A stretch of 64,000 bases of DNA from Cyanidioschyzon merolae (Eukaryota). Below the pieces are notes generated by a model, which was given only the letters and a program-made list of their open reading frames with translations, had not been told where the DNA came from and searched no databases. The translations under genes were made by a program, and so were the position numbers. The stretch lies in assembly GCA_000091205.1 (NCBI GenBank), contig AP006499.2; one strand, 5' to 3'. Positions 1,992 through 56,322 of the stretch are shown piece after piece; position 1 is the first letter of the stretch; each line of letters starts with the position of its first letter.

Positions 1992-4103
1992 TTGTATCTA
2001 AATGGAACAACAGAAACAAAAAATCCCTTGCCCCCAAGGCGTTGCCGTTCCTCCGCACTCTGTTCCTGCACGAGCGTAAGGTACCGCGTCCCAGCAGCAC
2101 GAAAACAACTGCAGCAGCTACTGGTGCCGCCACAACTTGTTGTTGCGTCCATGGCAAACAGCCTCGGCCTACCAGCAGTACCGCTGGAGCCGCGTCTGGT
2201 GCCGGATGCTGCGACTTGGCTCTCGGAGCGCTTCTCCAATGACGATGAAGAGGAGGTGACGCGGCTCGAGGAAGCGGTGTGTCTGCAGCTGGCGGCGCTG
2301 CGAGCGTTGCGGGCACCCCTGCCCCAGGGCATTGCTGTGTACCGGTGTCGAGCGCCCGGTTCACCGTCACGAAGTGCTGACGCTTCCTCAAGTCGTGGAA
2401 CTCGCAGCGTGCGTAGAACTGTGCAGCTTCGCCAGCGGACGCGAAGCGCTTACCGGCAGGCCAGCGGCACTACAGCAGCGAACACTGGCTTGCGCACCAA
2501 CCTCGACACGAGTATTGGTGCCGTTGATGAACACATCAACGACGAGTTGATCGATAGTCAAGAACTCGAAGAAGCAAGCACCGGTGAAACAGAGCCGCGG
2601 CCGGCGCACCGAGCGACGACAGTTGCGCATCGAGTGTTTATTCCACCGCGTTACGTCCTCCCGCATCATGCGCTGATATACGAACACACGGACTGGTATC
2701 GAGAACGAGTGCGTCTGGCCATGGAAACAAACAGTGGCCAGTACGCCTCCGCTGAGGCAAGCTCGGGTCGCGCGCCTGCTCCGCGGGCGCTCACGGTGTT
2801 CCCGGCACCTGCTGGTCGCGACCGCGAAACAGACTCATCGCCCAGGAGACCACGCGAGCGTCGGTTTCGTACACGCTTTTCCGGCCAACGTGAGGGTATC
2901 CTCGAAGATGCACTTGCAACCATACTTTTCCGCGATGAACGCACGGGCGCGGGAACCCCTCCCGCTGCAGAGATGCCTCTGGATCGGCAGCTAGATCGAG
3001 GACCTGGCCTGCCTGACAGTGCCGAGAGACTGCCGGCTCCTTTGCTTGGCTATCGCGAAGAGGTTCGTTCTCATCAGCGACGCGCATATGCGCAGCGTGA
3101 AGCGTTCGGCAGCCCGCCAACGTCCATGGTCCTCAGTGACTGGCTAGAGAGCCGTCGTCGCGACGTCGCGGACCCAGGCAGTGTATCACCAGCCGACGCA
3201 ATGTCGCTGTGGAGCGCACCCCGCGCACCTCAGAGGCACATACCAGGCCGTGGCGACGCAGCGCTCGGCGTCTATCGAGAGCCACGCACGGGGCAGCGGA
3301 GCCTCCAGAGACGCTCGACAGAGGTGTTGTCCACGTCTGTGGATACGGGTCGCATTCGAGGCCCGATAACAGCGAACGAGTCGGCGCCAGAGCTTTTACA
3401 TTCACCGCCTTTCCGAGCTGGATCGATCGGTGACGATTCCTTTGATGCCGGGAGCCTGCGGCTGACTGCCCGAGGACCGAGTCGAGCGCGCCTCTCGGGG
3501 CATGTGGCATCACGCACTCGTGGACTCCCCGTAGATCACATTTCGCCAGCAGATGCGTCTCTGCCCTTAGACGAATCGTTACAGACAGATGAAACGAGCG
3601 GGCGCGTTCATGGACGCGCTGCGCTTCATCGCATGAGGCGTAGCGGTCGAGAGCTCGACGTATCCTCAGTCGCGGATACGTTCCATAGCACATCGGCAGG
3701 CAGCGCGAGCCACCACGCTTGGACGAGGGCGCCCATGGACACTGCACGTTCGACAAGCACAGCTTTTGCATCGCCGTTAACCCTGGAGCACAGAGATTCC
3801 GCAGGTAGCTCGCCGGGTGACTTTGTTGTGAACGATTGGATGTCTGCAGGGGATCGTTCCTCGCGCACCGACCAGAGCCGAGGCGGTTTCCGGACGGGAA
3901 CCGGGTCAGCCGGGGATACCACCACGATAGAAGCGCTTGGTGGTCGACGGCATCGCGGACCCAGGGATCTGGTTGTGCGCATAGAAGAAACGCTGCGCAC
4001 GCGAGCCTGGGAACGATCCACCTCTGCGGATGCATCAGCGCGAGCTTCGGGTACTGCCCGCGCTCAGGTTCGCAATGAACGGCGGCATCTGGATTCATCG
4101 TAA
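1992..4103 (+). CDS. hypothetical Ser/Arg/Ala-rich low-complexity protein (coding status uncertain)
   Basis: 703-aa ORF with no recognisable domain. A 400-aa ORF (3133..4335) overlaps antisense. Length alone favours the + ORF. GC-rich DNA makes long spurious ORFs common. Confidence 0.25.
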   Translation: MYLNGTTETKNPLPPRRCRSSALCSCTSVRYRVPAARKQLQQLLVPPQLVVASMANSLGLPAVPLEPRLVPDAATWLSERFSNDDEEEVTRLEEAVCLQLAALRALRAPLPQGIAVYRCRAPGSPSRSADASSSRGTRSVRRTVQLRQRTRSAYRQASGTTAANTGLRTNLDTSIGAVDEHINDELIDSQELEEASTGETEPRPAHRATTVAHRVFIPPRYVLPHHALIYEHTDWYRERVRLAMETNSGQYASAEASSGRAPAPRALTVFPAPAGRDRETDSSPRRPRERRFRTRFSGQREGILEDALATILFRDERTGAGTPPAAEMPLDRQLDRGPGLPDSAERLPAPLLGYREEVRSHQRRAYAQREAFGSPPTSMVLSDWLESRRRDVADPGSVSPADAMSLWSAPRAPQRHIPGRGDAALGVYREPRTGQRSLQRRSTEVLSTSVDTGRIRGPITANESAPELLHSPPFRAGSIGDDSFDAGSLRLTARGPSRARLSGHVASRTRGLPVDHISPADASLPLDESLQTDETSGRVHGRAALHRMRRSGRELDVSSVADTFHSTSAGSASHHAWTRAPMDTARSTSTAFASPLTLEHRDSAGSSPGDFVVNDWMSAGDRSSRTDQSRGGFRTGTGSAGDTTTIEALGGRRHRGPRDLVVRIEETLRTRAWERSTSADASARASGTARAQVRNERRHLDSS

Positions 4104-4408
4104 AATGAATGATGCATCGTGGTAGTCGACGAGCTGACGCGTGAGAAAGACACTGGGAAGCTGTTTTGTAGGCGCAGGGCGACCCCGGTGGCGGCGCTCC
4201 GAGCGTCCGCGGCAGGCACGATGAATACGATGCACCGGTGCCCTTCAATCGATGTTGCCTGTAGATTTTAAAGAATGGCAATTTTAGGATTGGTAATGCG
4301 TAGCAGCATCTCGAAGGGAATGGTGGTGCTTTCATGGTTCACCGACGGCAACCGGGAATCCCTTGGATTCTCGTTACACCGGTGTCAGAATAAAATGCAA
4401 CGGATCGT

Positions 4409-5038
4409 TCAAATTGGGCGTACACTGTACGCCCTGGGTATCGTTCTAGTGTCATCGACACAGGCCTGTGGAGACTTTTTCATTTCTGAGACCGCTTCCT
4501 TCATCGCCCTCTTGTCTACGGCTCGAAATGAGGCGGGCTCTCCGGTCCTTCCTGCTCGGTTGTCGGCAATGGAAAGATGTTGAAGGCAGCGTTTCAAGTC
4601 CAGATTTCGCAGATTCGGACTGCTGCCAACGCAGTTCATGCAGAGGCGGAAGTTGCGCTCTACGCTTCGCTTGCCATTTTCACCTGATTGGTAGGGAGCC
4701 ATGGTATGCGCTTCGCAACGGTGACAGTAAAATGTACTCTTGTGTTCTGGTATGCCCATTATACGTTCTGCGTCGAGGAGCCTCCTGTGGTGCGTGAAGA
4801 CTTGCTCCATAGCTCGGTACATGACAGGTACCGAGGACTCGCATCGATGCCAGCTTCCGTTTCCGTACCGAGTCCTAGACGCTTTGATGACGGTAATCGT
4901 CTGGATGATCTCTTCGACAAGCTCTCCGTCTGCTGCACACGCAAGCGGATGCTGTACAATTGGATAGAGGATTTGTTCAACGCGACATTGCCCATTAGAG
5001 AACAAGTACCCGGAAGAAAATCCAGGCTGGAGAAACAT
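4409..5038 (-). pseudogene. possible TnpB-like relic (family C) lacking RuvC-III signature
   Basis: ORF contains LVEEI (RuvC-II-like), W(x11)YRA, and HKSTFYCHRCEAH(x23)CMNC zinc ribbon in TnpB order and spacing. Where D-NAA-NI is expected it reads RNLDLKRCLQHL. Lies in an AT-richer island immediately downstream of family A copy A1. Confidence 0.3.
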
Positions 5039-5344
5039 TCGAGAAAATTTGAACCGTGTACACTCACCTCATGCAAAGCGGTGATGCGCTCTGCACAGGA
5101 AGCGATCGCTGTGATGCCTGCATTCCTAGTCCAAGGCCCTTTTCCATGGAAAAGGAGGCAATGGGTGCTTCTGAAAGCATTTCCCGTTGGATATTTCATG
5201 CTGCTGTTGCGCTCAGCTTCGTCGATAGCGATAAATAGAAAAAGGAGGGATTGGTCTTTCGGATAGAATCGACGTTGATTGGACGTGACAAGTTTCGTCA
5301 ACTTCCGGCATGAGCTTGTGAGCAAGCCGATAAAGAACGACGTG

Positions 5345-6815
5345 GCATAATAATCTATGTAAATGCATTGTTCATGAAACAAAGAAAATGTCTCACGACC
5401 ATGAAGGTATATATACATACTGACGAGCAGACGCCTCCGAATCTTCTTTGATCGGCGGCTTGCCTTAGGTATCAGTTTCTCCCCATACACTTCGAGACTG
5501 AGAAGCTGCCCTACAAAGTTTGCTCGCGTCAGCTCATCGGGTCTTGTCTCCAGAACCGCACATCGTATGATATTGATGGCGGCGTTGAAGTCTTTGTTCG
5601 CGAACTCCATGCGTTTGTTGCCGCTGTTTGAACTCATCAATGCAAGGGTTGCTAGAACCCGCGTCCTGTGTGCCACCTGCTGCTCTTTCAGCAATCCGTG
5701 CTTTTCCATCGCCGAAGCCCTCCGCTGTGTTCTCCCTATCTCGACCATCTGGTGTGTATAACCCAGCTCATGCCTTAGATTTTTCATTTCTCAAAATGAA
5801 TGGGCTTCTTTATGCCCGTAGCTAAGGACCTTCCCCGAGGAAGAAGGACATGTTCAAGAAAAACGACATATGCCTCGGCGTGCCATCGTGTGCTGAAAGC
5901 TTCGGCAATTCGCCCCGTGGAGCGATCATTGCGTTTCAGGACAGAATACACTCCTTCAATGGGGCTGAATCACGGAGCGTATGGAGGAATGGAAGGCAGC
6001 TCTACTCCCAGATAGTATCGGCAAAATCTGGAACTCAAGGGGAATGGTAAAATACTACGTTGTTCAATAGAAGGACGTTGCCGGACTTGAGGAAAAAATG
6101 TTCAACAATTCGACAAAGTGTTCGCTGCTATTGAATGAGCCTTCTCAACGAGCGAATATGAGGACGCCAAATGAATCCACTCCAGCTAGAACAGATGATG
6201 ATGTCCTCGTTCTCCTCGAGCTCGATCTTGTATACAATGAGCTCTATCTCCGAGAAAATAAACATATACGATTGGACCGTTTCGTCTGAAGCAGTTCTCA
6301 TCGGCTGAAAAACAAACCGACGTGCCTGTGCTTCACACGAATCGAGAGGTCCCATGCATGTTGTCGCTGCGATCTCGGTGGAAGATAGCCGTTTTCGTGA
6401 ACCAGGACTGGTTTTGTATGAATGTATCCCGAGTTTCCAGGATCACACGAGCAAGCTGGTGAGAAACAGAGACACCCGCAATAACTACTATTATCGCGTC
6501 GCTTTCCTTAAAGCAATCAAGTGGTCGTTTTTCTAACATGGCCGACAACAAAGTTTTTACCAGTACCTGTTTTTGGAGCAGAGCGCGCATACCTGTTTCT
6601 TTCAGTGTTCTCGACCATCCTAGTATAGTAGTATGACTGACCTGAAGAAGGAATGCAGCCCTCGTTACCATGATCAGTAAATAATATGTATCGTGCATGC
6701 ATTTCGTCTACGATCGAATCGATACAAAGCATAGAAATGTCGATCTCGTACGATACACTGCGAAGAGGCATTTGATGACACGCAGCAGGCGCGAAACAAA
6801 ACTGACGTGAAAGAC
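5345..6815 (-). mobile_element. TnpB/Fanzor-like RuvC nuclease relic, family A copy A1 (frameshifted pseudogene plus about 240-bp 3' tail)
   Basis: Minus-strand translation gives KRMEFANKDFNAAINIIRCAVL (RuvC-III D codon at 5590-5592). Upstream are decayed Zn-finger, VPDFADTIW (6008-6034) and AGVDSFG (6166-6186) blocks in different frames. About 75-80% DNA identity to copy A2 over more than 1.2 kb, including the non-coding tail 5345-5590. Confidence 0.6.
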
Positions 6816-22361: not shown

Positions 22362-24030
22362 GCCGAAGTGTAGACTCCTTTTCGGACTCTGCTCGAGGCA
22401 CAATACTCCTAAACGAGGAGGTCACAGATAATCCGCGTGCGAACATTCCCGGCCTCGGCGGCTGCGTCCGATCGGCGAAGAGGAAATCCCTTAAATAGGC
22501 GAAGGTAAATTCCATATTACATGGCGCGTCCAACTTTAGCCCATTTTCCGCCGTAGAAAGACGCAGGATCGAGCCAGGCTCATTCGAATACGCAAATGCA
22601 GCCGGGAACCACAGAAGAGGCCTCGAATGCTCTCCAGATGCTTCAAAGCTCCATGAGCCGAAGCGCAGACTTCCCGTTGGTCGTCCTGGTTCGATCAGTC
22701 TTACGATGCTTGTCCTCTGGGAGACGCACCAACCGTCAATGGTTGTTTCGGCGCTTGAAGCCGCAATGCCATACTCGTCGTGTGGAAACAGAGCGCTTTT
22801 CGTCTTCCTGACGGAAGCCTGCCTGAGACTTGCACCCATCTGTGAAGTCAACGAAGCGACTTCGAGCCGCACCAGTTGAAGTTGCCCGCAGGAGGAAGCG
22901 GAGGATACCACACGCCCAAACGTTTAGCGTTCAGAGGTCCGTAACGAGGCATGAACTCTGGATACACCTTGAGCATATCGCAGCTGCCGGGCACAGTTGC
23001 TGGTGCTGGTTCGGACAAAACGAGCGATGACGCTGGACGCGTGGCTCGCCGTTTACGAGGATCAAAACTGAACATGTGTTGGCGAGGGGCGTTAACCATG
23101 TGCGAACCCGCGTACCCTGATCTTCCGAGACTCGCGATGCCCCAGCTTAGCCAGGCGCACTCCGTCGCCCATGTTCCCGAAATAGTGTCGCATGCGGGCG
23201 TCTCTTTGGTCTCTGAGATCGGAGGAGTCTAATTGCGTGCGAGGATAATCGACAGGGATGTGGCTTCAGATCAAGTGCCAACGAGCGGCAAGCTCCAGTT
23301 AAGAGACGAATCTTCATGAGCGCCGAGCCGACTGCCACGGACATGTAGCACCGCTTTGCAAACAGAGGGATAATCGGGAATGATGCTCTTGTGCACAGAA
23401 TTCTCTATCGTGCAACGATACCGCTAATGGTGTTGCGAATACGACCATGGTCAGTCGCTTCTGCTCTGGAGACCGAAGCTCAGGCCCGCGCTTCGTGCGG
23501 CAAACCCTCGTCTGCCGAACGATACACTGTCCTGAGCTCATTGGAAGTATCGGTGGCGTCGCAGCAGAGCTGGGTAGAATCTCGTGCATGTCGGGCGGGG
23601 AGCGGGCCTCATCAAACGGATCCAGGAAACACCAACAATGGACATGATTGTCCCTATACTCAATCTAGATGGACGCGGATGCATGCGATGACGCGTGATT
23701 CGCAGACATAAACTGGAATGTCATAAGACATAAATATACAAAACTACCAAGAGTCCGAGAGCGCGCTTCTGCGCCCCGTAGCGCTAGACGCAACGTGCGG
23801 CACATATTCGAACGCGGTTGCGCTTTCGGACACGTATCCACCAGGTGTGCCCGAGAGATCCTGCGTACTTCTTTTGTCGCAAACAGAGCGAAGAAGCGTC
23901 TACTGTCACCGAAGGCACGCAGTTGGCGGAACCTGGTGTGCAAGCGTCAGCGTGCTGTCACTCTTGGACCAGAGAAGCAGTGCTGTTGACGAGCGCTGGT
24001 GTTTCGGGGTCACCTGCTCCGGGAGCCGCC

Positions 24031-27000
24031 ATGTCGGCGGCTGTGCACTACAAGTTCCGCTCTGCGAAACACTTTGGTCGGGTGCAGTTTGAGGGGGACT
24101 TTATTCAGCTCGCAGAGCTAAAAGTAGCCATTGTGGAGCAAGAAAAACTGCAGTTTGGCGAGGACTTTGACTTACAAGTAGTTGACGCACAAACCCAGGA
24201 AGAGTACTACGACGAAGAAACCTTGATACCGAAGAACACTTCGGTTATCGTGAAACGAGTGCCTGCTGGCCAGAAGCAGGGCATATTGAGTCAGATCGCA
24301 CTCGCAAGGAAAAATGAGCGCTTCGCTGAGATTCTCGACCGCTCAACCGGCGGCACGGGTGCCACAGCGGGCGCTATTGCTGCAGCTGCACGGCAGGTGC
24401 TTGCTGGCAACCTGGGACCCAGCACAACCGCGAACACAGGCATGACGGGCAGTGAACCTGTCCGGCTCCGTCGAGGTGACGAAGACACGCGCCTTGCCTC
24501 CGTGGCCCTCGCAGCTGGCGCAGGAGACTCGGGCCCGAATCCACGAAACATCCAGCGTCCAGGCGGCCGCGTAACGGCCTCGGGAGCGATGGATGGGCCA
24601 CCGCCGGGTGCGCAGCCACCGCCAGGTTATATCTGTCACCGCTGCGGAGAGCCAGGCCATTATATCCAACACTGCACGGCAAACCTGGAAGGCGATGTGA
24701 ATATCATTCGTGTGAAGCGACCAACTGGCATTCCGCGGAGCATGCTAAAAACGATTGATGCACCTGTAGATGGAGGGACCGAGCTTCAGCTTCCAGGTGG
24801 TAAATTCGTGACCCTAGCCACAGACGATCGTGAGTTCAGCAAAGAACCCCTGGCGGTGCGAATGGCGCGCCTTGCGGAAGCACGAGCGGGGGCACGCGAG
24901 GACAATACCATCGCTTCCGACGTTACGACGATACAAGGATCCGAGACGAAGCAACCAGTGCCCATGGATAAAAAGGAATCGGAAACAACTCGTCGCCAAG
25001 TTGCTGCTTCCGATGCGCCATCGGAGAGCGCGGCGTCATCGCCGCGAGGCTCCACGCCAACAGACTCGGTGGAAAACGCTCAGCTGTTACCAGCAGATAT
25101 ACGCCCCGATTTACCCTACTTCCCGTTACCAGGAATGGATCAGAAGGAACATTTCTTTGGGACAGGCGAACTGCCCACCGCGCGTGAGTTCCAGGAAGTA
25201 ATCTGGGGTATTATTTTGATGAATAGGGATCAGCATCCAGAACTTGGGCATGACATGGAGACGGGAACTCAACGCGATGTGACGCGGGATTCGGCGGCAG
25301 CGCTCCAGCCTGAGCCCAGATCCATGGAAAGCGCTGAAGCGCCGAGCACGACAAATGAGCGTGCTGTATCAGCACAGCCGCGGCCGCGGATGACTGCTTC
25401 TGCAGAAGGAGAAAGCTACCAGGAGCGCCGGCCGCAGGCGCACGAACGAAAGACACCCACGCATGTGCAGGATGTATCCAAGCGTTCTCCAACATCTGAA
25501 GCACAAAACGTACCCGAACGAGGCGACAGAGATCCCGACAAATCAGCGCCTCGAAGTGGAAGCGTCGCCAATGCGCGTCCGATACCCTCCAGCTTCAAAT
25601 CCACAGAGACCGCGAATCATCATCTAGACGCAGAAAGGCCAAGACCAGGGCGTCGATCGTCGGCGCTCCAGGTGACGTCGATGGAACCCTCAGGTGCACC
25701 ATTTGGCGAAATCGAGTACTCGCGTGTGTCGACCAAGAATCAGCGCTTGCTACCGCCGGATCGGAAGGCTACTGAAAGCGCTCAAGCAACAGCCCCGAAC
25801 TACGGAAATTCATTGCCGAGGAAACAAGCTGCCTTTGCCCGCAGTGGAAAGATGACTGGGAATACCACGAGACCGGGGCTGCCTCTTGCGCCGCTCCAAA
25901 CGCAGCAGCAGCAGCAGCACCAGCAGCAGCAGCAGCACCAGCAGCGACAGACGCATGTGCAACGCTTTCAGGCTGCAAACCAACACGGCAACGAGGCAGC
26001 GAGCGTGGATAAACAGCACCCCTTGGACAGAGGTCAGCATGCCATGCAGAGAACGGAGCCTGCGCGAGAACGTCGACAACCTACTGTTGCAGCCGCCGAC
26101 AGGAATGCGGTATCGCGAGGCGTTCCGACTTCGAGGGCGACCTCTTCTGGTGTCACAGCAACGGGCTCTACCGCGCCCGTTCGTACCAAAATGCCGCCAC
26201 GAATGCCGCATCAGAGACCAGATGAGGATACGCTGGGTCACAGGCATCATGCAGCGTCGGACACGGAGCAAAAACCTGCCCAGTTGAACGCAAACCTCTC
26301 TCAGCCGCAACCGCTGAGCGTGTCGCGTGCTCGAGAGCGATCAGGTCTGGGAAAAAGCGCTCGGCACTCGCCGGCACCCGTGGCACCTGCTCTGCATGGA
26401 ACAACCCGAAAGCACCCGCGGGCTAGCGACTCGTCACCAGGAACCGAGACGCGCGACTCAAGACCGATTCCAGTTTTTGCTCGTCTGGGCACGAGAGCAG
26501 AAGCTGCAGCGTCTACGCGCGCCCCAGCCTCTGTGCCCCAGCGGAGCACTACCGGGAGCATCGGGTCCGCGGAACGGAGGACGGTGCCGCCAGCGCATCC
26601 GCCTCCTGCAGACGCGTCGCAGCTCAAAGGCAAAAACTCCTCCCCGATGAATCAACAAGGCGAATATCTACACCGAGCGAGTGTACGCGCACCACCAAAG
26701 GTTCCGGAAAAGCGTCCGGCAGCGACAGCAGCTGTTGGCGACGACAAGCGCTCCCGGAACACGCCGAGCTCAGCCGAGCGGGCCGCCGCTAACGTCTTTG
26801 AACGATTAGGACCAGCGATACCGGTGCCTCCTCGTCTTGCTGGGCGTATTTCGAGCGGAAAAGTCAGCGACGGTGAACGCGGAGCGAACGCCTCTACCGG
26901 TGCATCTGGTGTGGTCGCCAACGACGCCTCGAAAACGAAAACGAACCTACGGGCAGTGCACGCGAAGCAGAGCGTCCCTATGACACAGCAAAAAACACCC

Positions 27001-27072
27001 GTGCCGACATATTCCTCGAGTGAAACAGGTTCAAGTCGTGCCCGGAACAGGGCTGCAAACTTGCCGTGGTAA
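24031..27072 (+). CDS. RBBP6/Mpe1-like protein: DWNN ubiquitin-like domain plus CCHC zinc knuckle, no RING detected, long disordered tail with polyQ
   Basis: MSAAVHYKFRSAKHFGRVQFEGDFIQLAELKVAIVEQEKL...LIPKNTSVIVKRVP (DWNN). YICHRCGEPGHYIQHC (CCHC). RVKRPTGIPRSMLKTIDAP matches the RBBP6 linker. ATG at 24031; track ORF starts 23818. (CAG)n at 25903-25946 encodes QQQQQHQQQQQHQQ. Confidence 0.8.
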   Translation: MSAAVHYKFRSAKHFGRVQFEGDFIQLAELKVAIVEQEKLQFGEDFDLQVVDAQTQEEYYDEETLIPKNTSVIVKRVPAGQKQGILSQIALARKNERFAEILDRSTGGTGATAGAIAAAARQVLAGNLGPSTTANTGMTGSEPVRLRRGDEDTRLASVALAAGAGDSGPNPRNIQRPGGRVTASGAMDGPPPGAQPPPGYICHRCGEPGHYIQHCTANLEGDVNIIRVKRPTGIPRSMLKTIDAPVDGGTELQLPGGKFVTLATDDREFSKEPLAVRMARLAEARAGAREDNTIASDVTTIQGSETKQPVPMDKKESETTRRQVAASDAPSESAASSPRGSTPTDSVENAQLLPADIRPDLPYFPLPGMDQKEHFFGTGELPTAREFQEVIWGIILMNRDQHPELGHDMETGTQRDVTRDSAAALQPEPRSMESAEAPSTTNERAVSAQPRPRMTASAEGESYQERRPQAHERKTPTHVQDVSKRSPTSEAQNVPERGDRDPDKSAPRSGSVANARPIPSSFKSTETANHHLDAERPRPGRRSSALQVTSMEPSGAPFGEIEYSRVSTKNQRLLPPDRKATESAQATAPNYGNSLPRKQAAFARSGKMTGNTTRPGLPLAPLQTQQQQQHQQQQQHQQRQTHVQRFQAANQHGNEAASVDKQHPLDRGQHAMQRTEPARERRQPTVAAADRNAVSRGVPTSRATSSGVTATGSTAPVRTKMPPRMPHQRPDEDTLGHRHHAASDTEQKPAQLNANLSQPQPLSVSRARERSGLGKSARHSPAPVAPALHGTTRKHPRASDSSPGTETRDSRPIPVFARLGTRAEAAASTRAPASVPQRSTTGSIGSAERRTVPPAHPPPADASQLKGKNSSPMNQQGEYLHRASVRAPPKVPEKRPAATAAVGDDKRSRNTPSSAERAAANVFERLGPAIPVPPRLAGRISSGKVSDGERGANASTGASGVVANDASKTKTNLRAVHAKQSVPMTQQKTPVPTYSSSETGSSRARNRAANLPW

Positions 27073-27077: not shown

Positions 27078-28310
27078 GCAACTGAATATGTTGGCGATGG
27101 TGTACCAGGAAGCGAAAACGTATCGCGAACATGGGGTAAATGAATATCCACCCGGAGACATGTGCCTGCCTTTTTCGACCGGGCTCCTGCTGTCGGCTTT
27201 CGTTTTCTCCTTGCACACTTCGAACATCAGAGGCGGTGCGACGAAGTTAGGTTTCGTCAGCTCTGCGTGTCTCGTCTTGAGCGCTGCACATCTCCTGATA
27301 TTGATAGCAGCGTTGAAGTCTCGGTTCGCAGACTCCATGCGTGCAGTGCCTCTGGAGCTACTCACTCATGCAAGGAATGGTACAACTCGCGCCCTGTGTG
27401 CCACTACAGTCTCGTGATCGTCTCGTCGATGAAACACCTTTGCTCTCCGATTTCCCCTCATCTTCATCGTCAGTTGCTCTTCTTCGCTCGACGGTCGCAC
27501 AGAAGAGGATGTTTTCCGGTTTTATCGGATAGCCAGCGATGTCGGTCCTTCAGAATCCCCGAATTCCATGCTCATACCTTTCCCTTCTATTTTTATTTCT
27601 TCAAAAAAACACAGTTGTTTATGCCCTCAGATGAGGACCCTCCCGGAAGGAGACGGTCTTGCAGAAGAACGACGAAATGTGCCCTGGTATCACCGTGTGG
27701 TGAACGCTTCAGCGCTTGGCGCAGTGGCGCAATCACTAGGTTTCGTCATAGAAACGCCTGCTCTTCATAGGACTGAACCACCGAATGTACGGAGGAATAA
27801 AAAGCCGCTCTACCCTGACAGAATCAGCGATAGATCGAACGCAAGTGGAATGGAGAAATACCACAATATCCAACGGAAAGACGTCGTCAGACCTCAGGGA
27901 AAAGTCTTCAATTGTTCGATAAAATGGTTCGTGCTGTTGTATGAGCCTTCTCTACGAGCGAAACTGAGGTCGCCGAATGGTTCCACTCCCGCACGAACAG
28001 GTGGTGTCCTTGTTATCTACGAATTCGTTCGTTGAGAATATCAGTTTTTGGCGCTGATCGCATACGCTTCTTTCTTTCAGTATTCCTCAACTACCTGAGT
28101 TCGTATGGTATGGCTGACGTAAATGATGCATGCAGTCCTCCTTGCACTATTCAGTAAAAATATATCTCTGATAGACGATTCAATTACGATCCACACAGTA
28201 CATTGCATCGTGAGTCCGATCTCCTGCTCTGCACTGCGAAAAAAGCATTCGTTGACACGCAGGAACGTCGGAACGGAATTGACTTGAACAAATTCGCAGC
28301 TGAACATCAG
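27078..28310 (-). mobile_element. TnpB/Fanzor-like relic, family A copy A2
   Basis: ARMESANRDFNAAINIRRCAAL (RuvC-III motif near 27320). Collinear DNA homology to A1 from the 3' tail (27080-27320) through VRSIADSVR and AGVEPFG blocks to about 28310, with a roughly 325-bp indel relative to A1. No intact ORF. The 3' end lies within about 10 bp of the RBBP6-like stop codon (27070-27072). Confidence 0.55.
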
Positions 28311-32919: not shown

Positions 32920-33439
32920 TTCCGGTGCAGGTTCCCAGACCTAACCGCCGACGCCCAGTGCTGCGTTTTCCCCCGCTAGTCAAAACCTAAGGTTTGCAGG
33001 CGTGTCTGCGAGTTTTTTGTCGAACTTCACCCCGCACCCGCGAGACTTGAACACAGAACAGGACGAGTGACTCTGGCGGTGGCGAGTAGTGCCTCGTGCT
33101 GCACTCGTGCTCACGCGCTCCGGGTTTCCAGGCAGGCGCGTATCCAGGCCCTACGGCGGTTAATGCTGGAAGCGCACGCTCCACGGGCGTTGTGCGCTCA
33201 CGCTTTGTCGGGTGAACGAGCAGCGCAGTACTCGTCCCTGGTTCGCAACGCTATGTGTCTACCGCTGTCACCTACACGGTTTTTAGTGATGTAGAACTGA
33301 CAGGTAGAAACCGAGGCCCTTGGATACGCGATTGCTGTGTATCGGGAGAACAACAGCTCCACATTGATTGCGCTGCACACCGAACAGCGCCGCCGATTTT
33401 TTTCATTGACAAAACGTGTACTTGTGCCAGCGTTCTCCG

Positions 33440-36400
33440 ATTATGCGGGTTCTCCTTTCTTTTTTGTGTGTTTTCTTTCAGTGCGCGGCGACGTATCCAC
33501 CAACCCCCTACCTCCAAGTTACATACCCTTTACTGATTCCAGGATATTCTGGTCGTTTCATACGTCCCATCGCGTGTGCCTCGTACCTGCCGTTCCGTAT
33601 TCGCCTTTGCGCTTGAACGCTGGAGCAGATAGTTCATGGAGCTGGAACAGCTTTTCTACACCACAGAGGGCGTCGGCTCGAGGCGTGCTTCACCCGACGT
33701 AGAATCGGATCTCGTCGTCAGTTTGTGCTCGGACAGTCTGCGGATGCAGGCTTGTCTTCGCTGCACGACACGCTGGAGAAACTTGGTTGTTAGGATATAT
33801 CGTGGAAGCCGCCTCTCTCCTTTGTGATCATGCATGGAATGCGTTGTTGTCGGTTGGCAATGCGGGTTTGTGCTTGACACCCACCACAGTGGGTAGGCGC
33901 AAAGAGCGCACTGAGCCCATGTGCGCATCCGATTCGCTGGACCTTCCGCCTAGAAGGTAGCATGTGAGTTTGTTCGCCACTAATGAGCGCTGAGGCTCGG
34001 TTAGCGGACCATCAGTTGCCAGTGCTACACTCAGGGTGAGTGTCCGGCCTTTTGCTATCACGGTGATGTCCAGCTGCTGCTGTCCTTCAAGGAGCTCGCT
34101 GCGCTCCTGCTTCGAGCGCGGGCACTGTAAGCCCAAATATGTCAGCGTCTCGGGGGTCTGGTCTCCAGAGCAGGGACAGTGTGACTCCCAGTGCGACTCC
34201 AGTGTTCCTATACGGCTTAGAGCCGGTGCTGGTAGCCAGATGCCACCAACGCGGATTTTGGCGAGCCACTGGGTACCTCGAGCAAGTCCCGGGAATTCCA
34301 GCGCCTCCCACCAGTACTTGCACGTGTTTGCTAGGTTGTAGTTCCGGTATACAGTCAAGCCGGCGTTAAGGGCGCGATTTGTTCCGTGTCTACGTTCCCA
34401 TATTGTTTGGACCGTTCGCTTGAGGCGGCGGGAGCCTTGTACATTTCTGGGGAACGATTGGAGCGCATTTTCGCCTAAGAGGCGCTTCAGCCAAATCTGC
34501 GCTGATTTCATCCAAGTGTTCTAGCGGTGCGTTGGGGTCTGCATGAAAATCCGACTCAAAGAGGTGCGCATAGTGGGCCCTTTGGCCCGTATACATGCCC
34601 GGCAGCCTGCTGCTATCGCTTCTGTCGAGGCTATTTGGAGTTCAAGTCCGAGTGCCAGCGCGGTGGTTGCTCTGCTCTGCACTGAGCATCCAACAACAAC
34701 GAGTCGCATTGCCCTGTTGGCGGCTGTCTGCGGACGCGAGGCATTTGTGTGCTTCATGCCGCACCACCCAGCACCCCAGGTCGTAGGCTGGATGATACAC
34801 ATCCTTAGTGCCCTCGTACGGATTGCTAAGGGGATAGAGGGGTCGGATAGGACTGGGCGTGCGATCGCTGTACGTCTACGCATCTTGGCGATCATCTCGT
34901 TAACGTGTGCCTTTTCGTCGAGCGTCAGCATGCGACAGACCCTGCAGATAGCGATATTTTTCCCCGATCGGACTTTCCTGATTCTGCAACCGCCACGAGC
35001 GATTGCGAATGCTCTGCGAGTCTCCATGGATGACCATGACGCCGCACTTCGATGCTCCTACGTTCATCTTCCAGCGATCGACCCAGGCGCTGACTTGTTC
35101 CATGCTACCCGCAAGCGTTTCCGGGGCGGGTGCCAACAACACGACATCGTCCGCGAATAGAAGGCCTGCGAGGCGGTTCCTATGCGAGGGCTCTTTACCG
35201 GGCTCTCCGCAGTCTATCCACGGCACCTCAAGTCCGTATTGTCTGCAGTTGTTCAGCGGATCGTTGATGAAGATGTTGAAAAGGAGCGGGGATGCGGGGT
35301 CGCCCTTTTGTAGTCCACGGCGGATTCTTATACAAGGGGTTCTTGAGCTGTCGCCCAGTCGGATGCGCATCCATGAGTCTGCATAGAGCGCACGGAAGAA
35401 CGCTAAGCACTTTCCGGAGACTACGGCACGTTCCATCTTCAAAAATAGAACCTCGTGCGGGACCGTGTCAAAGACCTTTTGGAAGTCGGTGAAGCATACG
35501 TAAGTTGGTTGTCGGTCACGAATAAAGCGACGTTGCGCCACTTCAATGAGGGTCAGGGCATGGCTCATGTACTCCTCGCGGCTCCGGAATCCAGCCTGCC
35601 CTGGGGCGAAGAACTTGCGTTGCTCGAGGCCCCTCTGAGTCCGGTTCGTGGGAATGGCGCAAAGTAGCTTTATGATTGACGGGATGAGGCGCATAGTCCG
35701 GTAGTTGTTCATGTCTGTGTGGGAGTCTTTTTTGAGGATCGGTACGACTTCGGCAGTCCTCCATACATCCGGGATGTACGTTTCTTCGAACATGCCTTGG
35801 ATGAGCTCCACAAGGCGTTTGCCTAAGCTTGTGTCAGGTTCATCTGGTATCGATGGTGTCCCTGTTGTCCCGTCTTTTGGGGTCGTCAGTTTCATCCACT
35901 CCGCAGGGATACCGTCGATGCTAGGTGTTTTGCGGTTGCATGACCTTAAGAGGGTCCGAACAGATTCAGGCCAGAAGATTGGCTCGTTCCATTCCGGTAC
36001 CGGGTCGAGGCGCGGTAGTTCTGCGGCATACTGGTGCCAATAGATTCGGTTTTGGCAGTGCCCAGTTGCGTCTTCATGTAATTCTGTGCCGTGGTCCGTC
36101 CAGGCCTCATTCACTGAGGCACCCTCCGTCCTCAGCGCTTCCTTATAAACGATTGGTGTGAGCCCCAGACACTTTTTTGGTGGGTCAAGTCTCGATCGGA
36201 TATAGCGCTAGGTCTCATCTTCGTTGGTGCTCTCGAGCATAGATTTCGCCAGGGAGGCGATTTTGCGGTTTCGATCCTCCTGTTTGTCTTCTCTGGAAAG
36301 TTTCTTCTTTCTTTTGATAGCTTCCTCATGTTGCGCCTGTAGCGCCGGTAGCGCTGCCTTCGCTTCCTTGTCTCCGGCGTTGGCGCGTATGGCGGTGCGT

Positions 36401-49151: not shown

Positions 49152-49940
49152 CTAAAACTCCGGGGGTGCGGGTGCATCCTCGAGGCGGTTGTGGCGCTGA
49201 AACCGTCGGTGCCCTCGGCGGGGCGTCAGATGAGGTGGCCAAATCGTGCCCGGTCCAAGCTCATCTTGTACTTCTTCTCGCCCCGCACTAGTTTCCAGCT
49301 GGCGGAGCTGACGACTAGATACCTCATTATCGGTTCTGGCTACAGCCAATTCGGTTTTTAGGTGAGCAATCTGCCGCAACAGGTTCTCTTCGCGGACAGA
49401 TGCCTCTTCTCGGACTCGTTGGAGCTCCTCCTGCAGAACTCGGAGTGATTCTCGCTGGTTGCGCACCAGTTCCTGCATGAAGCCTTGCAACTCAGAGCGT
49501 AACACTTCCTGCTGGGTGCGTGCGTCGTCAGCAGGGGTCGTAGCCGCTGGCGCTGCTGAGTCCAGCAAACGCGACTGCAGCGCAGCGAGTTGCTCTTCAA
49601 TGCGTGTGCTGCGCCTGCGCTCCGTCTCCAGTTGCTCCTCTAGCGCCTTTTTTGTCATCTGAAGACGGTGGACCTCGTCATCAGATTCGCGTAAGTAACT
49701 TGTAGCCAAAGCATAAGTTTCACGAATTAGCGCCTGTTCACTGTCTTCCCAGAACTGTTGTAGCTTCGCGGTGGCGTCGTGCACCACTTGCTTCCATTGC
49801 TCCAGGTTCTCTGGTTTGGCCTGTTCCACAGCTTGACGGACCAAGTCTGCGTCCAGCCTCTCGGCACTTGATATTCTCTCCTCTTCGAAAGCGTTTGCAA
49901 GACTAGTGAGCTCAGCTCTGAGCGAAGCGGCTCGGCTCAT
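49152..49940 (-). CDS. coiled-coil protein (hypothetical)
   Basis: 262 aa, heptad-rich Glu/Leu/Arg/Gln composition throughout. Clean ATG. Confidence 0.45.
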   Translation of the reverse strand: MSRAASLRAELTSLANAFEEERISSAERLDADLVRQAVEQAKPENLEQWKQVVHDATAKLQQFWEDSEQALIRETYALATSYLRESDDEVHRLQMTKKALEEQLETERRRSTRIEEQLAALQSRLLDSAAPAATTPADDARTQQEVLRSELQGFMQELVRNQRESLRVLQEELQRVREEASVREENLLRQIAHLKTELAVARTDNEVSSRQLRQLETSAGREEVQDELGPGTIWPPHLTPRRGHRRFQRHNRLEDAPAPPEF

Positions 49941-50103
49941 GGTGGCGGCTGAGCACGCACCAGCACCGCCGCTCTAAGTCGAACGACGCCAACGGTGCAC
50001 AGTAGTGGCGATAAACCCTCCCTAGACAAAACGTCTCCAACTGACGTGTAGACGCCTCCCCGTGTTTTTTGACCGGCCACCCACTACTGTTTCCAATTTC
50101 TTC

Positions 50104-51310
50104 TCATATAGTTAACCTTTTGGGAGGTTGTCTCACAAAATTCTCTCTTGTCATCTCTGGAAGTCTTTTTTCCATCACCACACATTTCCTGATATTAATT
50201 GCGGCGTTAAAGTCTCGGTTCACAAACTCCATCCGTTTCTTGCCATCATTGATTGTACTTACTAATGCAAGTCGCCCATGAACGTTCGCCCTCCTTTCCA
50301 TTTGCTATCCCGTCAGCGGTCCGTATTTTTCATATCCTCAGGGCTCCGCTGGCACTTTTCCATCTCGAATCTCTGAAGTGTGCATCCCAGCTCATGGTGT
50401 ATATACAATGCTCGGAACTCATCGATCGGTAGCGGAACGAAACGCCTTGCGCACTCCTTGTACGTTCTCGCCGGTGGAGCTGGTGTAGTCCCTTTTTGGG
50501 TCTTCCAGCGTCCTGCTCCGTATGCCACTACGAGCCTCTGACGTTCATCCTCCTTCAAGCCACTCAACTGATTGAAAAAGTTGGCAAACGCCCGCTGCTT
50601 CCCACAATACAGATTCATTCGCAGACGAGCCCACCGAGGCTTTGTATACCCTTTCCACAGCGCATCCCAATGAGCAACGCGACCTTCCATGAATTTTCGA
50701 AAAGCTTCAAAGTCCGCTCCTCGACTCGTCACCTTGCTCAAAGCCTCCAGGTGCTCTTTCACTTATGCGTTCCACGTCTCGATTTTATTCCTTGCATTCA
50801 TGATTCTGGAGTCTCGATAGTATCTTGCTCTCGAGAACTTTAAAATACTCATGCCTTTCTGAAGTAAGTTGCCGTGGATACCATCTTCCGCACGCTTGGG
50901 TACTGCGATGGTTATGATACTTGTGCCCCAGGGTCCGCGCCAACGACAAAGTCGTTATCCTGCACTTTCTGCGTCGCAGAATCCGCCTCCTTCTCATCTT
51001 CATGCTTCGTTACGGGCGAGGCCGAGCATGGAACAAGACGATCCGCCTTCAAGCGCCGACGGTGTACACACATGGATACCCCATCGGTTTCGATCACCCC
51101 AGTGAATACCTTTTGTTCGCTGACTTTCAAACGTTTGATTTCGAAGATATTCTTCTGGTACTTCTCCCGGTTTACACCGGTGAACTCCTTCCTGCTAACC
51201 TTGAACTCCGGACAGATCTCCCTCATGATGCCATGAAGGACTGCGGAATCGATGGTCACGAAATGTGCCCTGATGTTGCACAACGGAACCACGTTGAAGC
51301 GCTTCTCCAT
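50104..51310 (-). mobile_element. TnpB/Fanzor-like relic, family A copy A3 (diverged subfamily)
   Basis: Three consecutive minus ORFs in different frames: ...[12 protein letters not shown] (RuvC-I-like, near 50920-50950); RLVVAYGAGRWKTQKGTTPAPPARTYKECARRFVPLPIDEFRALYIHHELGC (50313-50762); KKRMEFVNRDFNAAINIRKCVV...NFVRQPPKRLTI* (50104-50301). 12-bp frame break at 50301/50313. May extend 5' to about 51900. The 3' end is about 160 bp from the coiled-coil gene ATG. Confidence 0.6.
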
Positions 51311-52299
51311 TAGGAACGCTTCCGTCTCTCAGACGCTTCATTGTTCCCGCGATTCAGCTCCATCTCCGCCTTGGGTTCGAGCTCTCGGTCTAGGTGCACG
51401 AAATAGCGCATAATTAGGGGATATCATCATTTTTTCACCTTTTTTCATATCTGATACCTTTTCTGCTGGGTTGACCGGCCTCAAGGGTGCACGGTGCTCA
51501 TGAATAGTCGCACGGATTATAGAATCCTCATTCGTGCACCTGCGTGATGTCTTCTTGTCGACGAACTCGATCTCCTGTTCAAGCTGGCGATCGTCCGTCA
51601 TCCCATTGGTGATGGCCCATCTTTCCTTCGCGAGAGAGACCCGGTTGGAGTGCAAACACGGCGCATATCATGAAGCCCTGGAGGTTCATGGTTAAACGGT
51701 CTCCAAGTTCGTTAGGTACCGCATGGCCCCGTGGGTGTAAATATTCCAGTCCCTCTGCATCGAGTACCGTAGAAGCTGTAGAAGGGATGCTTTTCGTGGA
51801 GGGCATGCACCCGCTCATTTCCCCTCGAGGTTTCCCCTGTGGCGAGCACCAGGTGGCGGAGAAGGGTCCTGCTGAAAAATTCTTCCGGAACCTCGGCTGT
51901 TTCGATGTCGGCCACGTCTTCATTCATCTCCTTCACCAAATGCATTAGCCCTGACGAAGCCTTTATAACACTCATGGAGTAAGACGCAACACGGTTTCTG
52001 GGAGTCTCTTGCAACGCTTCCTTGGACGGATGCTTGATATGTATAAGATGGCAGGCTTTGACAACCATCACGTCGTTGTGCCGTCTTTCTTGCAGCCTTT
52101 GACGTCGGGCCTCCTTCATTCGCTTCTTTGTCTCGTCCTGTTCCTCTTCGCACTGGACTGTGTGTTCGTTTGTATCCGCCAGCTGGCGACACTGGGCCTC
52201 CAGGAGCCTCCACTTTCACTCGCATAACTTTCCTTTTTAGTTTTTTTTCTGAGAAAGAACGCACTTTGAATGCTTCAGGTATAAACAGCGAAAAATCAC

Positions 52300-53620
52300 T
52301 TGAATACACTTACTTGAGGGTTGGAATACGATTGAACTGAAAAGCATACTTTGCTACGACTTCAATGCAAATACACCGCGTGCAGCAGAACAACACGCTC
52401 TTGATACCGATCGCGTTTCCGTTCAAGAGCAGCATGCGCGAAGTGTCTCGTGTAACTGGCTGATGTCTCTGGTGCACGTGTCCAGCCCCCTACAGAAAAA
52501 AAAACAGAGACTCACGACTAACTGGCAACGATATGACAATTTCTTTCCCCCCTCTAAGGTAAACGTTAAAAGGCGAAAAGGTTTCCATATTGTCGAAAGT
52601 TTATTTTATAGGCGAAACGTCCCGCGAGCCGGACGTGTCTGCCAGACCAGTGCTTCATGCGACCCCAGTGGAAGGTGCTTGCTGGAAACCCGAGCAACTC
52701 GTGCGAAATGCAGTTTATTATGGGACTAGGAGCGGGTATGCTGCGTCAGGGCGTCGGCCTGGTCGCAGTTATCTCCTTACATATCGCTTGGCGCTGCCGC
52801 AGGCACTAGGTCTGTCTGCAGAGCTTGCAGGCTCCCAGAAAGATTATGTACTCTGGCGCTGTATCGGGAAAAGCGCTCCTCGATTGGACGCCCTCTGTGG
52901 TACGGTAACGCGGTTTTGTCTCCGCGATCCATCTGTTCCAGCGGTTTAGGCGCCACTACGGGTGCTCATGGTAGGTACTCGCGCTCGCTAGAACGTAAAA
53001 ACCGACCAGTATGTCCGCGATGAAGCATAGGTAATGTAACTTGGGAGTAGGGAGTTTGATGGATACTTCAATGCGCACTGAAAAAAATAGGAAAAGAAAA
53101 AGCGCATAATCGGCGAACGCTGGCCAATGTCAACGTTTTGTCAATTAAAAAAATCTGCGAATACCTGACCACAACGAAATGGCACCGATGCGACGGGCGC
53201 GCTCAGTTTCCACCCCGAAAAGACGGGAATGACAAGCGCTGCACAAACCGCAACGACCGCTTGTGCGTGATACGTATGAGCAAGAGCCTGGAGCAGTGAG
53301 ATAGGGACCTGGACGCTGCCATCAACATTCTTCGACTGCTGCGAATGAAGCTGGAGTCAAAACGAGAGACCAACGAATTAAAAACCGGAGGTATGAGGGA
53401 GCGAAAGGAGGCTATTGCAGAAAAGGTCCACAAATCCAAAGTATCAATGACTACAGGAAGAGACCAAAACTCTAGCGTGCGCACCCGAGTGAGTAACGCG
53501 GAACCTTCCATGGTAGTCTGCCGTGGGTACCGGGGAGCCCCGTGTCCATCGCGAGACACTCTCGCAGAGCGTCCGCCTTGTTTTCGGAGGAAGCAGGCGG
53601 AAAAGCGGCAACGCCATGCA
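52300..53620 (+). mobile_element. TnpB-like relic, family B copy B2
   Basis: + strand 53300-53341 translates DRDLDAAINILRLL (near-canonical TnpB RuvC-III) preceded by HRCDG...KRCTNRNDRLC (decayed Zn finger) in the same frame after a stop. Upstream GFHIVESLFYRRN (RuvC-II-like E, about 52595) and W...VEG...AVYY in a second frame. Tail 53350-53600 is about 75% identical to the B1 tail. Carries about 0.4 kb extra internal sequence relative to B1. Confidence 0.5.
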
Positions 53621-54438: not shown

Positions 54439-54963
54439 TTACGGCACGAGCTCGGGCAGATTCTCCGTCAGGAACTGGGTAAGTGCGGGTTTGCCTATAG
54501 CCCCTTCGTGTCGCGCAACAACATCCCCTTTTTTCATGAGAATTAGGGTTGGAAGCCCTGAAATGCCGTACCGAGTCAAGAACTTGGGGTTCGTATCCGT
54601 ATCCAATTTGTATACCTTCATCTTTCCCGAAAATTCGTTCGCCGCCCAGTCGATCAACGGCGCAATCAGCTTGCAGGGCCCGCACCACTCCGCGTAAAAG
54701 TCTACCAAGACAGGCACATCCGCCTGAAGCACCTCCGATTCAAACATATCATCCGTTAGAGTCGGCGCTTTGCAGACCAGAGTGCGCGCCGAGCCAGCTA
54801 CTCGCCTCTTCTCAAAAGCAGGTACACGACGCGAAGCCCAGCGTTGGCGCTGCGACTGGTTTCGCACCACTGGACAGTGCGAGCTCATCGGCCGTGAGCA
54901 CACTGCTCGCGTACCAGCGTTCCTTCCGCTTGGAGAACTTGGTGCGTTGCCTATGACGAACAT
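54439..54963 (-). CDS. thioredoxin (m-type-like) with organellar presequence
   Basis: VLVDFYAEWCGPCKLIAPLIDWAANEF...GLPTLILMKKG. About 70-aa Ser/Arg-rich N-terminal extension. ATG 54961-54963. Confidence 0.9.
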   Translation of the reverse strand: MFVIGNAPSSPSGRNAGTRAVCSRPMSSHCPVVRNQSQRQRWASRRVPAFEKRRVAGSARTLVCKAPTLTDDMFESEVLQADVPVLVDFYAEWCGPCKLIAPLIDWAANEFSGKMKVYKLDTDTNPKFLTRYGISGLPTLILMKKGDVVARHEGAIGKPALTQFLTENLPELVP

Positions 54964-56322
54964 TCTCGAGAAGTGAACTGTTTACCTCGACGCGTGCAGA
55001 GGCGCGTTCAGCGGCTCACGATTCAGAGCCTACACACAACGCAGAAGACCCGCGGAGGCGGACGACGAGGAGGAAGGGTTCCAGGTCGAGAATCCGCGCG
55101 CTCGGCGGATGCGACGCCTCTTTGCGAGCGCGCCTCGTCAGCCGTGCTCGAAGTGCTTTTGCCGATAACGAAGTGTTTACATTGACCACTGGATCCCAGA
55201 TTATGGGGTGTGTATTACGATTCATGTAGTCGTCCACCATGATGCATCATACCTCCCAGTTCCGTTTCCTGTTTTCGGATGTACCGGTCGTTTTGTACAG
55301 TCTATTGTGCGGCGAGTGCCAGCCGTGCGTTATCCGCCTTGGCGCCTGAACACTGCTGGCGCGGATCCGTCTCGGAGACAGAAGGGCCTAGCCATACCAC
55401 TGAGCGCGTCGGCTCGAAAGGTCGTTCACTAGTCACAGAATTAGGATTCTTTATCGTTCTGGGAGCCTGCAAGCTGCGCAGAGAGACGTACTGGCTGCGG
55501 CAGCGTGTAGCGATATACTGGGAGACCACTGCGACCAGGCCGACGCCCCGACGCTCCCTAACTGCCCTAGTCCCAGAATAAACTGCGCTGCGGACGAGTT
55601 GCTCAGTTGCCACTACAGCACGCGCCACTGCAGCGCCGCATGAAGCACGATCCGAGCAGACTCGTCCGGCTCCCGGGGCCTTCCGCCCATGAGGTAAATT
55701 GTCGACAATGCGGAAAACTTTTCCCCTATTTGGAGTTTACCGTAGAACAGGGAAAGAAATCGTAATCTCATTCCTAGCTACTGATTCGTTTCTCTTTTTT
55801 GTTTTCTATAGCGCGCGCTCGATACGCGCATTTACGTATCTGATAGACTTGAGATATGACGCCACAGAGTCTATGACGTTTCGATCTTGCACTGGGAAAA
55901 GCTTCGGTGCATTTCACACTGCAGGCGCACCCGCTCTCGGTGTCACGTTTCAGGGCAGGGTTGCGGTGCGGCTCACGTCGCCGCGTCTGTTTTCTGCAGG
56001 CGCAGCACGAGGTACCTGCGGAACCCCATAATGGATAATTCTGGACCGCTGGTGAGCCCGCATAACGCAATACCTCTACCAACTGGCACGGATCCGATGG
56101 GTATGCCTAGAACACTGCGAACAGTTGAACTCGTCGTTGCCATGTGCTCGAGCGATGCCCCCGGTATCAGCTTCTTTCCATGCCTGGAAACGTGATCGCA
56201 AGAGGCGGGCCATTGATGCCACGAAATCGGGGTCTCTGGTGGGACAGGCTGCTGTCGTATAGCGCATCGTACCCAGAAAACGCGTATGGGCATGGACATG
56301 CCTCTATGACTGCGTTCCTCAT

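Follow-up and report, generated by a model that had tools for sequence, protein, structure and literature searches.

The closest described counterpart of the locus considered here is CMe-1A, an element of the red alga Cyanidioschyzon merolae. Bao & Jurka (2013) reported about 150 copies in this alga, each about 80% identical to a consensus of ~3 kb (PMC3627910). CMe-1A has no terminal inverted repeats (TIRs), its target-site duplications (TSDs) and its target-site behaviour were left undetermined, and its 5' 635 bp correspond to a separate element, TE-N2_CMe (PMC3627910). In Fanzor proteins, Gly or Pro stands at the canonical RuvC-II Glu position, with an alternative conserved Glu some tens of residues downstream, and the Fanzor RNA (fRNA) extends beyond the open reading frame (ORF) to the right end of the element, its guide being taken from the flank (PMC10530073). 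The subject of this analysis is relic A3, an element on the minus strand of a 64,000-nt stretch of C. merolae contig AP006499.2 (assembly GCA_000091205.1), hereafter the window, in which all coordinates without a contig prefix are given. A3 is almost certainly an old, dead copy of a CMe-1A-type mobile element encoding Fanzor1, and its 3' end lies immediately upstream of a conserved coiled-coil gene.

A3 shares with CMe-1A a red-algal host, an element of ~3 kb without TIRs, a Fanzor1 protein and many copies, which are 75-86% identical here. In both, a 5' module (~635 bp in CMe-1A, ~670 bp here) also exists as an independent repeat. The family has already been described as CMe-1A, and A3 is ordinary in kind. 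The element spans ~3.2 kb, from about 53159 to 49958, and comprises the following parts, listed together with the solo copies of its 5' module:

52490..53159, minus strand: 5' module, a TE-N2-like separate repeat family with solo copies elsewhere in the window
49958..52489, minus strand: Fanzor1 core (5' leader, degenerate ORF and 3' tail), common to all other copies
50104..52158, minus strand: degenerate Fanzor1 reading frame in at least seven frame pieces (tblastn)
49958..50103, minus strand: conserved non-coding 3' tail resembling an fRNA/omegaRNA scaffold, 146 nt past the A3 stop codon
55276-55811: solo TE-N2-like copy, inverted
33391-33697: solo TE-N2-like copy

The core is 75-86% identical (blastn) to copies on the metagenome contigs L002, L003, L005, L007, L013, L017 and L020-L023, among which its limits recur (5' ...GCGCACCTGGGAGATC..., 3' ...CGGCGTTGNTGGTG). 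DNA homology of the A3 core to these copies reaches about 52485 at the 5' side. At the other end, homology of the tail in 11 independent copies stops sharply at ...CGGCGKTGNTGGTG, corresponding to window 49958. The 5' module is 70-74% identical to its solo copies and to the 5' flank of the core in L005/L006 and L017. A comparison of the element ends found no inverted repeat joining 53159 and 49958. The window is intron-poor with ~56% GC, and the A3 region stands out with a GC content of 0.50 versus about 0.56 and a strong skew.

An earlier reading made from the letters alone (the sequence-only reading) had confined the relic to 50104-51310. This is only the 3' 1.2 kb of the element: the reading frame continues to 52158, the core to about 52489 and the module to about 53159. 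The same reading called A3 a diverged subfamily, a label that better suits two other relics in the window. A3 is a canonical family member that shares 75-82% identity with copies elsewhere, whereas A1 and A2 are strongly diverged and truncated, with 67-86% identity over short stretches:

~5419-5772, minus strand: relic A1, C-terminal RuvC-III region (NKDFNAAINI / NRDFNAAINI in A1 and A2) and ~160 nt of tail only
~27148-27413, minus strand: relic A2, C-terminal RuvC-III region and ~160 nt of tail only

The identity of the protein can be traced through its homologues. The stitched A3 translation has 674 aa and 72 homologues (P0001-P0072), 50 of which are hot-spring metagenome proteins, mostly fragments, with 46-79% identity and E=1e-260 to 1e-86. 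P0001 is an intact, full-length homologue of 752 aa with all three catalytic motifs; its ORF as called extends over the entire family alignment, and its residues 1-752 cover window 52158-50134 (tblastn). P0002-P0004 are long uninterrupted C-terminal ORFs, while more distant homologues include P0051 and many Haematococcus lacustris proteins. At E<=1e-3, the family comprises 6242 cluster representatives. Four blocks, G(A/V)DPG, AYGAG(R)W, VDEFRTS and NRDFNAAINI, are present in every complete member, VDEFRTS lying 33 residues downstream of AYGAGRW. In A3, the corresponding blocks are:

50927..50941, minus strand: RuvC-I GADPG, Asp kept; conserved across P0001-P0072 and aligned with VIDPNK of SpuFz
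50505..50531, minus strand: VVAYGAGRW, with Gly at the canonical RuvC-II Glu position; aligned with VVMGDWS of SpuFz
50406..50426, minus strand: IDEFRAL, the alternative catalytic Glu block; Glu kept, the TS of DEFRTS changed to AL
50191..50220, minus strand: RuvC-III NRDFNAAINI, Asp kept; aligned with WNRDMLST of SpuFz

The sequence-only reading had recognised RuvC-I-, IGDW-type and RuvC-III-like blocks and had seen in the VVxYGxGxW...IDEFRTS-like block the rearranged catalytic site of Fanzors, a proposal that is borne out. It had also proposed a search with the stitched translation. As single queries, neither that protein nor the three ORFs behind it matched anything in Pfam-A or the PDB. 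A profile built from 15 family sequences, however, aligned with the RuvC domain of Fanzor1 when run against all PDB sequences, matching the Spizellomyces punctatus Fanzor SpuFz (8gkh) at E=1.4e-12 and the Parasitella parasitica Fanzor1 PpFz (9cf0) at E=1e-9. The alignment pairs motif with motif: GvDPg with VIDPNK, AyGaA with VMGDWS, VDEFRTS with LDEYKTS and NRDlnaa with NRDMLST. In an AlphaFold2 model of P0001, the mean predicted local distance difference test score (pLDDT) is 56 and the predicted template-modelling score (pTM) 0.40. Foldseek with this weak model returned only six matches at E<=1e-3, all of them SpuFz, GtFz or PpFz (template-modelling (TM) scores 0.30-0.45).

SpuFz and the Parasitella and Guillardia Fanzor1 proteins are the only solved structures matched by profile and fold. 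Like SpuFz, to which its identity is about 13%, the family has lost the canonical RuvC-II Glu (VMGDWS in SpuFz, AYGAG here), followed by DE(F/Y)(R/K)TS and then NRD. Two features set them apart. In SpuFz, a CxxC...C zinc ribbon precedes RuvC-III, whereas the cyanidiophyte proteins are without the second cysteine pair (LALVSTT...), and the cyanidiophyte proteins, unlike SpuFz, carry a variable 25-aa tandem repeat before RuvC-I. The second pair is absent from the intact P0001 as well (residues ~664-722; window 50191-50400), and the cyanidiophyte Fanzor1 proteins read ...VRGLLALVSTTSDSKKRMEFVNRD there. The distant homologue P0051 keeps cysteines before RuvC-III (LLWCCSTKC) but is without the first pair.

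RuvC motifs are common to the whole TnpB superfamily, and the element could in principle be a prokaryotic TnpB of the IS200-IS605 type or a Fanzor2 of the IS607 type, present as a contaminant or through horizontal transfer. Two distant relatives, P0051 and P0071, do approach PF07282 (Cas12f1-like TNB), with 25.2 and 23.2 bits against a cut-off of 26.3. Nevertheless, the PDB profile search at E<=1 retrieved only Fanzor1 chains and no TnpB, Cas12f or Fanzor2, no TnpA-like ORF was found in or beside the element, and the neighbouring genes are eukaryotic and keep their order across cyanidiophytes. These three results effectively exclude such an origin, which is very improbable. The family protein also differs in its long helical N-terminal extension with a basic start resembling a nuclear localisation signal, and in having Gly, not Glu, at the canonical RuvC-II position.

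Across copies, identity at codon positions 1, 2 and 3 is 89%, 92% and 77%, which argues that the copies diversified under purifying selection at the protein level and that the family was, or still is, active. Live members would combine a TnpB-like nuclease of ~750 aa with a structured 3' tail of ~150 nt. Their RuvC triad would consist of the Asp in GADPG, the Glu in VDEFRTS, taking the place of the canonical RuvC-II Glu that has become Gly in AYGAGRW, and the Asp in NRDFNAAINI.

A3 itself can no longer produce this protein and is a pseudogene. Its frame (52158-50104) contains at least eight frameshifts and two nonsense codons, which make A3 a relic of the Fanzor1 family rather than a functional member. 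The three minus-strand ORFs described in the sequence-only reading, with the peptides it quoted, are present in the 3' part of this frame, together with the mapped lesions and a single repeat unit:

50912-51310, minus strand: ORF carrying the RuvC-I region
50313-50762, minus strand: ORF reading ...LVVAYGAGRWKTQKG...IDEFRALYIHHELGC...
50104-50301, minus strand: ORF reading ...KKRMEFVNRDFNAAINIRKC...*
50763-50765, minus strand: in-frame TAA stop, where P0001 has Gly
50305..50331, minus strand: lesion pair, a 1-nt deletion and GAG>TAG, from DNA alignment to other copies; also in L019
50936..51014, minus strand: a lone ~75-bp (25-aa) repeat unit, adjoining RuvC-I on its N-terminal side

DNA alignment places a 1-nt deletion at about 50927/50928, immediately after or inside RuvC-I (GACCCTGG-GGCAC, against GACCCTGGAAACAC in intact copies). 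A second (50326/50325) falls right after the A5 run at 50330-50326, where other copies read AAAAAAGTACGG, and is followed by the GAG>TAG nonsense codon at 50305-50307. At least five further frame changes lie between about 51780 and 51320 (tblastn with P0001). The sequence-only reading had described a 12-bp frame break at 50301/50313 without a homopolymer and had taken this as its argument for pseudogenisation. The pseudogenisation stands, but the reason given for it does not: the 12-bp interval is a gap between mechanical ORF limits, and the real changes are the TAG codon and a deletion that lies beside a homopolymer.

That position beside an A5 run, and the presence of introns in some Fanzor genes (PMC10530073), might be taken to mean that the frame is intact, its breaks being assembly errors, introns or programmed frameshifts in a live Fanzor gene. 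The number and kind of the lesions leave this only the slightest probability. About eight frame changes and two nonsense codons are spread over 2 kb, and comparison with intact copies shows 1-nt indels and point stops where introns would call for insertions bounded by splice sites. Further, L019, an independently assembled JGI metagenome contig from a slightly different strain, has single-nucleotide polymorphisms (SNPs) elsewhere and yet carries the identical deletion and TAG at 50305-50331. With about 10 independent lesions in all, and these two repeated in L019, the pseudogenisation is real and an intact gene is excluded. Replacement changes are also raised at conserved sites, as in DEFRTS to DEFRAL: private substitutions of A3 at otherwise conserved sites amount to 8.1%, 6.8% and 11.9% at codon positions 1, 2 and 3, the flattest profile among the 11 copies.

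The ~75-bp unit occurs 2-4 times in tandem in other copies. For instance, L002 has four (L002:7146-7450), with self-hits at offsets 75/150/225. The encoded 25 aa follow the pattern ...KHE(D/E)xK(E)A...Q(K/E)V(Q/E)DND(L/F)VV..., and the AlphaFold2 model of P0001 is disordered in the repeat region (residues 343-474).

Beyond the stop codon, the 3' tail retains a recognisable fold. RNAalifold predicts a long-range stem of 10-12 bp, 50081-50090 with 49999-50008 (CAGTAGTGGGTGGCC with GCCACTACTG), which encloses a 9-bp hairpin. Over the 11 copies, 91.7% of the cells in this 35-pair structure are paired, and sliding the partners drops pairing to 34-61%. Compensatory double changes occur at five pairs, compared with 1.1 expected in shuffles (0/500 shuffles). 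The A3 tail and the tail of the intact copy in L002 have the same fold. A further feature closes the element:

49958..49998, minus strand: 3'-terminal hairpin at the element terminus, the last ~41 nt (single-sequence folds)

This hairpin has 13-18 bp in about 8 of the 11 copies, with z-scores of -2.8 to -7.4 in six; as the copies differ in register, RNAalifold performed poorly on it, and single-sequence folds were used instead. The many G-U pairs of the tail favour a sense-strand RNA over a hairpin formed in DNA. The tails of A1 and A2, unalignable beyond about 160 nt, were left out of the structure and distance statistics.

Like the omegaRNA of TnpB (ISDra2) and the fRNA of Fanzors (ApmFNuc, CrFNuc-1; PMC10530073), the A3 tail is structured, begins near the end of the ORF and reaches the right end of the element. 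It has no sequence or Rfam similarity to them, the likeness coming from predicted structure and position. By position and architecture, the tail fits an fRNA/omegaRNA scaffold. In live copies, by analogy with characterised Fanzors and TnpB, it would be transcribed outward across the 3' end as the scaffold of a guide RNA, and the flanking host sequence would become the guide. A3 would have lost the protein while keeping a tail that is predicted to fold like that of an intact copy.

Several observations weigh against this account of A3 and its tail. The assignment to CMe-1A was made by comparison with its published description. The stitched A3 protein and its close homologues reach no model in the local Pfam-A, a copy that does not include PF26935 (DUF8286, 'weak'), which is listed as a precomputed match for close homologues. 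The AlphaFold2 model is poor (pLDDT 56, TM 0.3-0.45) and unfit for residue-level active-site geometry. The TNB zinc-ribbon cysteines are absent also from those cyanidiophyte copies that are intact, which leaves some doubt about whether the live family is active. With regard to the tail, at 76% identity it is overall no better conserved than third codon positions, and sequence constraint is seen only in its first ~60 nt and in the CGCCACTACTGT block. Its covariation comes from 11 related sequences and five compensatory pairs, and an Rfam search of 49800-53300 at E<=1 matched nothing.

Where the copies sit relative to host genes is a feature that the published account of CMe-1A does not mention (PMC3627910); the same-strand placement before host start codons is a new observation. 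Distances were taken from the element end to the first host ATG in 11 copies with complete tails, using metagenome contigs:

L021, 3' end at 1746: ATG at +12 nt, POT1-like gene
L013, 3' end at 2638: ATG at +13 nt, DAO gene
A3, 3' end at window 49958: ATG at +18 nt, coiled-coil gene
L023, 3' end at 1755: ATG at +31 nt, complete eL43 ribosomal protein gene
L007, 3' end at 3754: ATG at +44 nt, IF-2 gene
L003, 3' end at 6004: ATG at +51 nt, SMC gene with the typical MGRIQRL N-terminus
L022, 3' end at 4579: ATG at +93 nt, HMG-box-like gene (weak Pfam match)
L017, 3' end at 5440: ATG at +137 nt, VHL gene
L020, 3' end at 3149: ATG at +238 nt, RPS4e gene
L005, 3' end at 7673: ATG at +428 nt, DEAD_2 helicase gene
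L002, 3' end at 8426: faces the 3' end of an opposite-strand gene

In this small sample of 11 independent copies, the 3' end faces the start of a same-strand host gene in 10 (one-sided binomial p 0.006). The ATG follows at 12-51 nt in 6 of the 11, far more than the few percent that we estimate for random intergenic insertion. The flanking genes are all different, and at least three start codons, those of the coiled-coil, SMC and eL43 genes, match the expected N-termini. Read-through ORFs into host sequence (P0031, P0033) were left out of the orientation test, since they are ascertained only when on the same strand. Relic A2 is a counter-example to the same-strand pattern, adjoining the 3' end of a convergent DWNN/zinc-knuckle gene (23818-27072).

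Insertions of promoter-targeting retrotransposons, such as Tf1 of Schizosaccharomyces pombe and Ty3 of yeast, cluster just upstream of genes in gene-dense genomes. Tf1 and Ty3 are long terminal repeat (LTR) retrotransposons guided by contacts between integrase and host factors. Unlike them, the present family is a Fanzor element without a recognised transposase, and it shows a fixed sense orientation with its 3' end 12-51 nt from the ATG. The placement suggests either that the element targets gene 5' ends in sense orientation or that copies are retained there for the outward transcription that the tail would provide. We would tentatively propose, while judging it rather less probable than its converse, that the family inserts, or is selectively kept, directly upstream of host start codons in sense orientation, with the host 5' untranslated region (5'UTR) or start region serving as the fRNA guide and outward transcription feeding the host gene.

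At A3, the element abuts a gene whose start is conserved:

49941..49957, minus strand: 17-nt spacer from the element end to the host ATG, reading CGTGCTCAGCCGCCACC, with a Kozak-like GCCGCCACCATG
49152..49940, minus strand: host coiled-coil gene, 262 aa, conserved in cyanidiophyte red algae

The protein is 63-67% identical to P0219 and to a Cyanidiococcus yangmingshanensis protein, with the N-termini aligned, and the ATG at 49940 is conserved as the start, its MSRAASLRAEL lining up with MANATPLKADL in the orthologue. The best named orthologue is that of Cyanidiococcus (67%), there being no exact match in NCBI. The exact protein was found only in Yellowstone hot-spring metagenomes, of which SRR6049666 is from Obsidian Pool (PMC10762115). 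The sequence-only reading had placed the 3' end and tail of the element in the 5' flank of this gene, and the point at which homology among copies stops (about 49958, leaving 17 nt to the ATG at 49940) confirms it. If the gene is expressed, its transcripts would start in, or pass through, the element, given that the tail ends 17 nt from the ATG.

Gene order is kept in a related species (contig L024: eIF2D, thioredoxin, coiled-coil, M16 peptidase), and its 2.2-kb spacer between the thioredoxin and coiled-coil genes contains no Fanzor sequence, which indicates that the A3 insertion is lineage-specific. Non-coding DNA in L024 has diverged too far for the precise empty site, a TSD or a target-adjacent motif (TAM) to be defined. 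A metagenome scan with the coiled-coil protein for an empty allele returned only the filled allele (L019). 

The coiled-coil gene has remained intact and conserved with an element 17 nt upstream of its ATG. One possibility is co-option, in which the relic 3' tail would supply the core promoter and/or the 5'UTR of the gene through built-in outward transcription. Such a role is plausible as an extension of the account of A3 as a dead Fanzor1 element rather than a replacement for it, and we place its likelihood slightly short of even. In its favour, a spacer of 17 nt separates the element from a start codon that orthologues share. The protein is 100% identical in three strains, compared with ~1% SNPs in the adjacent tail, and the gene stayed intact and conserved after an insertion that L024 lacks. 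The layout is also repeated, with the ATG at +12, +13, +18, +31, +44 and +51 in 6 of the 11 copies, including those before the likely essential eL43, SMC and IF-2 genes. On the other hand, cyanidiophyte 5'UTRs may be very short, in which case the initiator could lie within the 17-nt spacer, and the upstream promoter of the element itself may be dead in so decayed a copy.

Other observations concern the 5' side of the element and its history of movement. The outer ~300 bp of the 5' module match the 3' end of a retroelement at 33391-36114 that encodes a reverse transcriptase (RT; PF00078); its RT ORF lies at 34900-36114 on the minus strand, and the module match runs opposite to the Fanzor ORF. 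The module looks like a partner, similar to a short interspersed nuclear element (SINE), of that RT-encoding long interspersed nuclear element (LINE). LINE/RT sequence also adjoins the Fanzor 5' end in L002 and L003. Movement of the whole unit by LINE machinery, via the LINE-like 3' tail of N2, was considered and rejected: many copies are without N2, and the Fanzor 3' end is precise in each of the 11, with no truncations.

In the window, a thioredoxin gene (54439-54963, minus strand) is bracketed by inverted TE-N2-like copies at 52490-53017 and 55276-55811, which are 72% identical over ~530 bp. In L017/L018, two Fanzor copies stand head-to-head (2-2222, minus strand, and 2917-5440, plus strand) with a TE-N2-like module between them (2285-2801). 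A hairpin seen by eye near the 5' end of the core (window 52400-52485, minus strand; GGCA...TGYC) shows a compensatory change in L005 (GGTA...TACC; L005:5021-5060 and L007:1038-1075 compared, by eye) and may be a conserved 5' structural element. Finally, one and the same 449-aa ORF fragment, P0013, is encoded at two loci, L007-L012 (IF-2) and L013-L016 (DAO). The 3' tails of these loci show numerous differences, which suggests that a defective copy was recently mobilised or that gene conversion took place between copies.

Since it is a pseudogene from a family known since 2013, A3 adds little on its own. The bias of 3' ends toward gene starts would be the first clue to the target choice of this Fanzor1 type. 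If the proposed placement is true, the family would be a Fanzor element that targets promoters or transcription start sites and, in a genome this compact, can serve as a movable 5' leader or promoter, with A3 and the coiled-coil gene as one fossilised example. To make a guide, OMEGA/Fanzor elements have to be transcribed outward across the right end; if they regularly stood before genes, they would be natural sources of 5' leaders or promoters.

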